This document shows positions 1-497 of a stretch of DNA of 497 nt, piece by piece. Made by a program: the position numbers and the translations under genes. The stretch lies in assembly GCF_003334335.1 (NCBI RefSeq), contig NZ_QOWQ01000183.1, one strand, 5' to 3'. This stretch comes from Escherichia coli (GTDB taxonomy: Bacteria; Pseudomonadota; Gammaproteobacteria; Enterobacterales; Enterobacteriaceae). Below the pieces are notes generated by a model. It was given only the letters and a program-made list of their open reading frames with translations. It was not told the DNA's origin and did no database searches. Within the stretch, counting starts at the first letter, position 1, and the number at the start of each line of letters is the position of its first letter.

Positions 1-497
1 TTGTGCTCTGCATGTCTCCCCGAACTGACATCTTTTTCCCCCTGCATCCAGATCACCGACAACAGCACGTTTTTCGGGTTTTTCTTCAGGGCTGCACGCG
101 TTCTGCTGACCAGGTCACGATACAACGGTTTATCCACCCCCCACAGGGAAGAGCCCGCTGTCGCACCCGACGCCTCATTAAACGCGCCCTCTGCTCCCGC
201 AGTAAATCCCGAATCGCCACGTCCACACGGGACAAGAAGGATCCCCGCACGGGCAGGCATAAACGGCAGCAGTTTTTTGGCCACATGCAGGGCATGCCCC
301 ACACAGCCATACTGCCCTTTATTGAGGTCTGCTTTCGGGTGATTCAGATTACTCACGTCCTGCACATCATGCAGACAATGGTCTGCAGGAATAATGTCGT
401 TATATGCACAGGCCGCACCGCCCGGTGTCACCGTGCTGCGACGCGCCAGTTGCTTAATACGCGGGTCAGGACGATCATACGTATCCGGCAGCGGCAG
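1..497 (-). CDS. Internal fragment (partial at both ends) of an SGNH-hydrolase family protein, sialate O-acetylesterase-like (SASA/DUF303 family; NanS / prophage NanS-p-like 9-O-acetyl-sialic acid esterase)
   Basis: Seen in sequence: the reverse-strand frame with codons at 497..495 down to 5..3 has 165 consecutive sense codons and no stop, while the other two minus-strand frames and the plus frames contain stops. Translation, N- to C-terminal: LPLPDTYDRPDPRIKQLARRSTVTPGGAACAYNDIIPADHCLHDVQDVSNLNHPKADLNKGQYGCVGHALHVAKKLLPFMPARAGILLVPCGRGDSGFTAGAEGAFNEASGATAGSSLWGVDKPLYRDLVSRTRAALKKNPKNVLLSVIWMQGEKDVSSGRHAEH. Established knowledge, from memory of the family consensus and not from a search: GILLVPCGRGDSGF (+ coords 204..245) resembles the SASA block II region (hydrophobic-L-I-P-C-A-x-G-G-T/S), and LLSVIWMQGEKD (+ coords 30..50 for WMQGEKD) resembles block III (W-x-Q-G-E-S-D/N). 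The preceding GHALHVAKKLL (+ 267..299) resembles the conserved g-x-s-F-A-k-x-l segment. Codon choice is rich in CTG, CCG, GCG and AAA, as in Enterobacteriaceae. Gene symbol left empty because I recognise the family, not the exact gene. Confidence 0.75.
   Translation of the reverse strand, partial: MPLPDTYDRPDPRIKQLARRSTVTPGGAACAYNDIIPADHCLHDVQDVSNLNHPKADLNKGQYGCVGHALHVAKKLLPFMPARAGILLVPCGRGDSGFTAGAEGAFNEASGATAGSSLWGVDKPLYRDLVSRTRAALKKNPKNVLLSVIWMQGEKDVSSGRHAEH

Follow-up and report, generated by a model that had tools for sequence, protein, structure and literature searches.

Sialate O-acetylesterases of the NanS family occur in Escherichia coli in two main kinds, as a preliminary description of the DNA treated here had stated: a chromosomal enzyme of about 326 residues, and prophage-borne NanS-p proteins of about 600 or more. 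These sizes agree with those of NanS itself (326 aa), whose gene in K-12 is found directly downstream of nanC and nanM, and of the NanS-p of phage 933W (645 aa). The catalytic residues of NanS are Ser19 and His301, while its oxyanion hole is made of Gln18 and a glycine, with no catalytic Asp (PMC9063846). The NanS-p core de-O-acetylates Neu5,9Ac2 as well as acetylated mucin glycans, thereby supplying E. coli with a carbon source; the alleles of EDL933 and O104:H4 are known to have this esterase activity, and the C-terminal jelly-roll domain binds carbohydrate (PMC8065619). Expression of nanS-p goes up with prophage induction, and a sugar site made of four aromatics (Y510, Y515, Y540, and F611) has been proposed for vb_24B_21, the NanS-p of phage phi24B (PMC10462455). 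For this same podovirus, a 2026 preprint describes hexamers of the N-terminal domain DUF1737 sitting on the capsid hexons, the protein being proteolytically processed.

A three-domain esterase gene

The window, by which is meant the whole 497-nt stretch of E. coli DNA that was analysed, is very probably an internal piece (codons 96–260) of a prophage-borne nanS-p-type gene, encoding a 660-aa three-domain sialate O-acetylesterase within a lambda-like late operon. In a six-frame check, frame 0 of the minus strand is open across all 497 nt, and at least one stop is found in each of the other five frames. The preliminary description had placed the window entirely inside one NanS/SASA esterase gene, and rightly so: it corresponds to nt 286–782 of a 1983-nt CDS and is wholly gene-internal. 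In E. coli JE86-ST05 it matches L001:20001-20497 at 100%, within the CDS L001:19716-21698. Window positions 3–497 hold codons 96–260 of the 660 codons, positions 1–2 hold the first two bases of codon 261, and the 165-residue translation begins at residue 96 of the 660-aa protein. The entire window is located inside the SGNH/SASA esterase core (protein residues 74–392), and its features are the following:

Window 1..497, minus strand: nanS-p-type gene, internal fragment (open frame; 100% match within the JE86-ST05 CDS)
Window 3..314, minus strand: part of Pfam SASA (PF03629), E = 2.2e-08; the match covers residues 157–276, of which 157–260 are in the window
Window 201..233, minus strand: SGNH block II, VPCGRGDSGFT, residues 184–194 (window translation aligned with K-12 NanS and 933W NanS-p)
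Window 30..50, minus strand: SGNH block III, WMQGEKD, residues 245–251 (same alignment and translation)

The catalytic Ser87 (block I, GQSN) lies 9 codons ahead of the window, and the catalytic His373 (block IV) 113 codons past it. Rfam, searched with permissive thresholds, gave no match in the window. Two further open frames, one on the plus strand at 1–342 (113 aa) and one out of frame on the minus strand at 86–310, were set aside as chance ORFs, since both overlap the strongly supported esterase frame.

Over the full-length protein, Pfam identifies DUF1737 at residues 3–50 (E = 2.3e-15), SASA at 157–276, and the lectin-like DUF6645 at 509–617 (E = 9e-32). [quoted passage not shown] No NCBIfam family model matches either this protein or K-12 NanS. 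Among the 120 homologues listed, 115 have at least 600 residues; all 115 carry SASA and DUF6645, and DUF1737 is present in every one except an N-terminally truncated cluster representative. Wherever the source of these long homologues is named, it is E. coli.

The SGNH motifs are all present: GQSN with Ser87, RG with Gly189, QGExD, and RxxH with His373. Gln86, Ser87, and His373 are the counterparts of Gln18, Ser19, and His301 in NanS, while Gly189 is the probable oxyanion-hole glycine to judge from the alignment. None of the 120 aligned homologues departs from these residues or from Asn88, Gly248, Glu249, and Arg370, and 119 of them keep Asp251. The catalytic residues of the 660-aa protein are intact. 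The positions equivalent to Y510, Y515, Y540, and F611 of vb_24B_21 are occupied by Phe, Tyr, Phe, and Phe, all still aromatic. A handful of residues are specific to the sub-lineage of this protein (Gly187, Asp190, Gly192, Lys250, Lys371, and Thr372), and some of them adjoin catalytic motifs (Asp190, Lys250, and Lys371-Thr372). All six are at family-variable positions and so provide no argument against activity. Position 190, for instance, is A in 57 of the 120 homologues, G in 44, and D in 18, and the Lys found at position 250 in the sub-lineage is replaced by Phe in NanS and 933W.

A lambda-like prophage as carrier

The preliminary description had asked for the flanking genes, the protein size and a core phylogeny as ways of telling nanS from nanS-p, and all three clearly favour nanS-p. 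A megablast of the window against 5,426 complete E. coli genomes yields four 100% matches (JE86-ST05, JE86-ST02, UCPROB-001, and UCPROB-002) and sixteen more at 99.4–99.8%, all of them chromosomal. A plasmid origin was discarded, with no match among 72,556 plasmids. In the phage collection, five induced phages (PhiR12_1, _2, _2_star, _4, and _5) match at 99.8% and another, PhiR5_1, at 87.5%. PhiR12_1, an active phage, encodes the identical 660-aa protein, which is already in RefSeq as WP_016238073.1, recorded on 140 contigs and belonging to a 90% cluster of 1,498 members; the gene family is itself well described. A literature search on the PhiR12 phages returned no relevant paper. Some carriers of the allele at 99% identity or above are STEC strains, but no Stx phage of the collection has it, the best match in a Stx phage reaching 76.9% in the window and 59% along the full protein. 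The carrier of the allele is an stx-negative lambda-like phage, present in human commensal, STEC, and environmental isolates. A sensitive blastn finds 6 window-like places in the JE86-ST05 genome and up to 17 in other genomes, and for this reason the source strain probably carries several nanS-p paralogues in different prophages.

In JE86-ST05 the esterase gene is found in a prophage integrated beside yccA, whose genes are arranged in this order:

Early part: integrase, exonuclease, dicB, regulators, replication genes, RusA
After RusA: antiterminator Q, hypothetical gene, DNA methyltransferase, three tRNAs, TerB-family gene, DUF3927 gene, esterase
3′ of the esterase: DUF1378, DUF826, class II holin, lysozyme, Rz-like lysis protein
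After the lysis genes: terminase small and large subunits, portal, protease, gpD-like decoration protein, gpE-like major capsid protein, lambda-type tail genes
For comparison, phage PhiR12_1: Q, esterase, holin, lysozyme R, Rz, Nu1, A

The order Q, esterase, DUF1378, DUF826, holin, lysozyme, Rz, terminase is common to JE86-ST05, JE86-ST02, UCPROB-002, STEC17-183, 2015C-3121, and PhiR12_1, with head and tail genes seen after the terminase in JE86-ST05 and PhiR12_1. STEC17-183 and 2015C-3121 (99.8% identity over the window) have Q or DUF1133 upstream of the esterase, and DUF1378, DUF826, holin, and lysozyme downstream. Altogether seven contexts were inspected (six host genomes and one phage), and in each of them the esterase has antiterminator Q on one side and the holin-lysozyme-Rz cassette on the other. 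In none of the seven is nanC or nanM next to it, and stx is likewise absent from its side in all seven, two STEC genomes among them. The flanks thus consist of Q, tRNAs, holin, lysozyme, Rz, terminase, head, and tail genes. The expectation that nanS-p paralogs sit in late regions of lambdoid prophages, including downstream of stx, stood in its first part only: the region is late, while the genes upstream in the exact-match genomes are those of the TerB family and DUF3927.

The 6.8-kb module running from Q to the holin is identical across the four exact-match genomes, UCPROB-001 included, with the exception of one nucleotide. In UCPROB-002 (L004:7716-9698), and in UCPROB-001 alike, a single C-to-T change at nt 1180 of the gene converts Arg394 (CGA) to TGA. 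The stop falls exactly where the esterase core ends, ahead of the linker and the lectin-like domain; the rest of the UCPROB module is identical to that of JE86. The JE86 prophage and PhiR12_1 have one block in common, which extends from L001:19208 through the tail genes at 94.5–98.7% identity, while their early regions are unrelated. Mosaicism of this kind is usual among lambdoid phages.

The slot between the tRNAs and the esterase varies from one genome to another. In JE86 (L001:18207-19221) it holds a TerB-family gene (phrog_632, “tellurite resistance”) and a DUF3927/TciB-like gene (phrog_1470), a pair also found in the UCPROB genomes. STEC17-183 has no annotated gene there, in 2015C-3121 the tRNAs are missing and nothing but small hypothetical ORFs or a pseudogene is present, and an ST131 prophage has iraM with a DUF3927 gene. 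In phage 933W the same slot (L006:2121-3703, between three tRNAs and the esterase) is occupied by stxAB. It appears from these comparisons to be an exchangeable moron slot. The first prophage tRNA, at L001:18207-18282, is called tRNA-Met (anticodon CAT) by ARAGORN and tRNA-Ile by RefSeq; it is the usual tRNA of the ileZ type, in which lysidine modification of the CAU anticodon leads to decoding as Ile, and 933W is annotated likewise.

Outside the window, a full-length STnc100 sRNA (Rfam RF02076, 143 bits, E = 1e-32) is located at L001:19287-19492 on the plus strand, in the gap between DUF3927 and the esterase and 224 nt upstream of the esterase start. A terminator-like hairpin is found within the element at 19462-19481 (JE86-ST05), and the block shared with PhiR12_1 begins just upstream of it, at L001:19208. 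A pasD/STnc100, esterase, holin arrangement has been described (bioRxiv 10.64898/2026.05.13.724894), and the JE86-ST05 locus fits it.

Placement among NanS and NanS-p proteins, and other readings

Over the window residues, identity is 75.0% to the 933W/phi24B NanS-p, 58.8% to K-12 NanS, and 61.2% to a short paralogue carried by a genomic island; over the core (residues 74–392), it is about 71%, 53–54%, and 53% (52.9%), respectively. At the DNA level, the window is 74.9% identical to 933W nanS-p over 462 nt, while K-12 nanS matches in fragments only, the longest being 129 nt at 70.5%. Neighbour-joining trees with 200 bootstraps were built from two short forms and 22 long prophage forms, in a core version and in a window-only version. 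The split of long from short forms has bootstrap support of 100% in the core tree and of 96% in the window-only tree, with the query falling among the long forms, in a sub-clade of its own that has 100% bootstrap. The allele belongs, on this tree, to a distinct NanS-p sub-lineage whose closest characterised enzyme has 71% core identity.

The preliminary description had held that the window gives no evidence either way. This is true only for a reader without databases: the DNA is 100% identical to prophage copies, and the split reaches 96% on the window alone. Once compared with databases, the window by itself is found to separate nanS-p from nanS, so that a 497-nt internal fragment suffices to distinguish the two. 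The same description had also anticipated that a nanS-p copy would mean prophage DNA, a larger protein, and an additional domain; what is found is a protein of 660 aa, within the NanS-p size class, with DUF1737 and DUF6645 as extra domains and phage genes on its flanks. The gene and its product show about 600 or more residues, three domains, a late-region position, grouping with the long forms, and the SGNH motifs, all of them features of NanS-p. Neither the nanC-nanM-nanS operon context nor the single domain of about 326 aa that characterize chromosomal NanS was found. The position downstream of stxAB, a frequent but not obligatory feature of NanS-p genes, was not seen at any inspected locus. 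Many NanS-p genes are found in non-Stx prophages, and the missing stx linkage therefore does not bar membership.

A third context of the esterase family is found in E. coli ZH063, where a 328-aa short NanS paralogue (WP_000274668.1, L009:4875-5861, annotated “sialate O-acetylesterase”) stands beside nanR, a NanM-like epimerase gene, and a KdgM-type porin gene, on an island with iha and an IS3 element next to it. This paralogue has 53% identity with the query core and 56% with K-12 NanS. The two contexts named beforehand, nanCMS and prophage, were thus the right main alternatives, with this island form omitted.

There is next to no chance that the window comes from chromosomal nanS (yjhS), the single-domain 326-aa esterase of the nanCMS operon. 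NanS is of the same SGNH/SASA family and its K-12 form aligns over the whole core at 53–54%, but the inspected matches at 99% identity or above include none in a nanCMS context, the DNA alignment is fragmentary (129 nt at 70.5%), the window protein is closer to 933W NanS-p (75% against 58.8%), and short and long forms split at 96–100% bootstrap. Hardly any more credit can be given to a short paralogue on a genomic island such as the 328-aa gene of ZH063, which groups with K-12 NanS outside the long prophage forms and has only 52.9% core and 61.2% window-segment identity to the query, even though such an island-borne, non-prophage context does exist and the ZH063 DNA matches 55% of the window at 67.4%. 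A nanS-p of a Shiga-toxin-converting phage, immediately downstream of stxAB, is also very improbable. The esterase does have the same position relative to Q, tRNAs, and holin as nanS-p in 933W and phi24B, and STEC strains are among the carriers at 99% identity or above; against this, the Stx phages of the collection lack the allele (at best 76.9% for the window and 59% for the whole protein), and the slot between tRNAs and esterase is never occupied by stx in the six genomes inspected. Somewhat more weight, within what is still an unlikely reading, is due to a truncated source copy with Arg394 turned into a stop as in UCPROB-001/002, which would retain DUF1737 and the esterase core and lose the lectin-like domain. 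This C1180T change (TGA at codon 394) is present in two of the four complete genomes that match the window at 100%, where the gene is annotated as two pieces, and since the site is outside the window, intact and truncated alleles are identical within it. Yet the intact 660-aa protein, present on 140 contigs and in the active phage PhiR12_1, is far commoner, and UCPROB-001 and -002 are closely related isolates that amount to about one event.

A further alternative bears on what the protein does: it might be mainly a virion enzyme, decorating the capsid and directed at mucin as phi24B gp84 is, rather than a metabolic aid to the lysogen. DUF1737 is present (E = 2.3e-15) with 62% identity to phi24B residues 1–55, the gene is in the late operon, and in phi24B the DUF1737 hexamers are on the capsid hexons and gp84 is a major virion band (2026 preprint). 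On the other hand, the phi24B result comes from a single preprint, and in the carrier type represented by PhiR12_1 the major head protein is lambda gpE-like and comes with a gpD-like decoration protein of the phage's own, both being unrelated to the phi24B capsid protein. The head proteins belong to phrog_2353/29 in PhiR12_1 and to phrog_334 in phi24B (pairwise BLASTP E = 0.047), and a partner capsid of the phi24B type (T=9, Traversvirus) was not found in PhiR12_1. The loop that holds the phi24B anchor Tyr42 is also three residues shorter in the query. This loop, outside the window at residues 36–45 (L001:19821-19850), reads ITP---YTLMQ against STAGYGAEFIQ in phi24B gp84; a Tyr41 is found near the three-residue deletion, and its alignment to Tyr42 is ambiguous. 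With head and decoration proteins unrelated to the phi24B capsid protein and a shorter Tyr42 loop, tethering of the phi24B type appears doubtful in a lambda-like carrier, and a mainly capsid-decorating role is on balance unlikely. The shortened loop and the charged Asp190, Lys250, and Lys371 beside the catalytic motifs also lead to a speculative and quite improbable reading, namely that the sub-lineage would be adapted to another capsid lattice (lambda-type T=7) and/or to another O-acetylated substrate, which might be 7/8-O-acetyl sialic acids or acetylated O-antigen or capsule. If true, virion-borne glycan esterases would no longer be confined to Stx podoviruses but would occur in ordinary lambda-like siphoviruses of commensal E. 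coli as well.

Proposed role and comparison with known systems

With the prophage-borne nanS-p-type gene as the preferred reading, its function can be proposed from its relatives: NanS, the NanS-p of EDL933 and O104:H4, and vb_24B_21 of phi24B. While the location, domain architecture, phylogenetic placement, and catalytic-residue conservation were directly established, we infer the esterase function of this allele from enzymes such as 933W NanS-p, to which it is only 71% identical in its core and 47% in its C-terminal domain. None of the EDL933 or O104:H4 alleles is close, and the nearest O157 or Stx-phage allele has about 77% nucleotide identity in the window. With antiterminator Q and an STnc100-type sRNA on its upstream side, and with DUF1378, DUF826, holin, lysozyme, and Rz following it, the gene would be transcribed mainly with the late genes upon induction. 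The SGNH type II core, with Gln86-Ser87 as nucleophile and oxyanion hole, Gly189, and His373 as base, would act on Neu5,9Ac2 and on O-acetylated mucin glycans, stripping them of the 9-O-acetyl group, and the C-terminal lectin-like jelly-roll would target the enzyme to carbohydrate. As there is no evident export signal, the protein would reach its substrate via phage lysis, a release that would make acetylated sialic acids available to the lysogen population. Tethering to the capsid through the N-terminal DUF1737, reported for phi24B, may also take place; this is the least certain step.

The stretch is thus accessory prophage DNA with a NanS-p-type esterase and not core-genome nanS, a distinction that matters when copy number, strain typing, and mucin-sialic-acid use in E. 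coli are interpreted. The gene itself adds one further allele to a phage moron family that is well described.

A mosaic structure is perceptible when the gene is set against 933W nanS-p. DNA similarity is about 73% over the N-terminal domain and core, is lost from the last part of the core through the linker into the beginning of the C-terminal domain (L001:20762-21370 against the 933W region L006), and is back at 79% from the gene end into DUF826 and the holin. This fading and return suggests domain-wise mosaicism within nanS-p genes.

Of the known systems, chromosomal NanS (YjhS, PDB 3PT5) shares with the query the SGNH type II esterase fold and the catalytic residues, but it is a single-domain protein of 326 aa, 54% identical, encoded in an operon with nanC and nanM and not in a prophage. 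The short paralogue of ZH063 likewise has a homologous esterase core, while being a single domain of 328 aa located on an island instead of a prophage. The closest likeness is with the NanS-p of 933W (Z1466) and phi24B (vb_24B_21, gp84). These have the same DUF1737, SASA core, and lectin-like C-terminal domain, keep the catalytic Gln-Ser, Gly, and His as well as aromatics at the four sugar-site positions, and are encoded between Q/tRNAs and the S-R-Rz lysis cassette. The query differs from them in length (660 aa against 645) and in its lineage-specific Asp190, Lys250, and Lys371-Thr372, and identity is about 59% over the full length, 71% in the core, 62% in DUF1737, and 47% in the C-terminal domain, the linkers being unrelated. 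Their carriers also differ: in 933W and phi24B, which are Traversvirus podoviruses, nanS-p comes after Q, tRNAs, and stxAB and before S, R, and Rz, whereas the query gene has no stx upstream and is carried by a lambda-type siphovirus.
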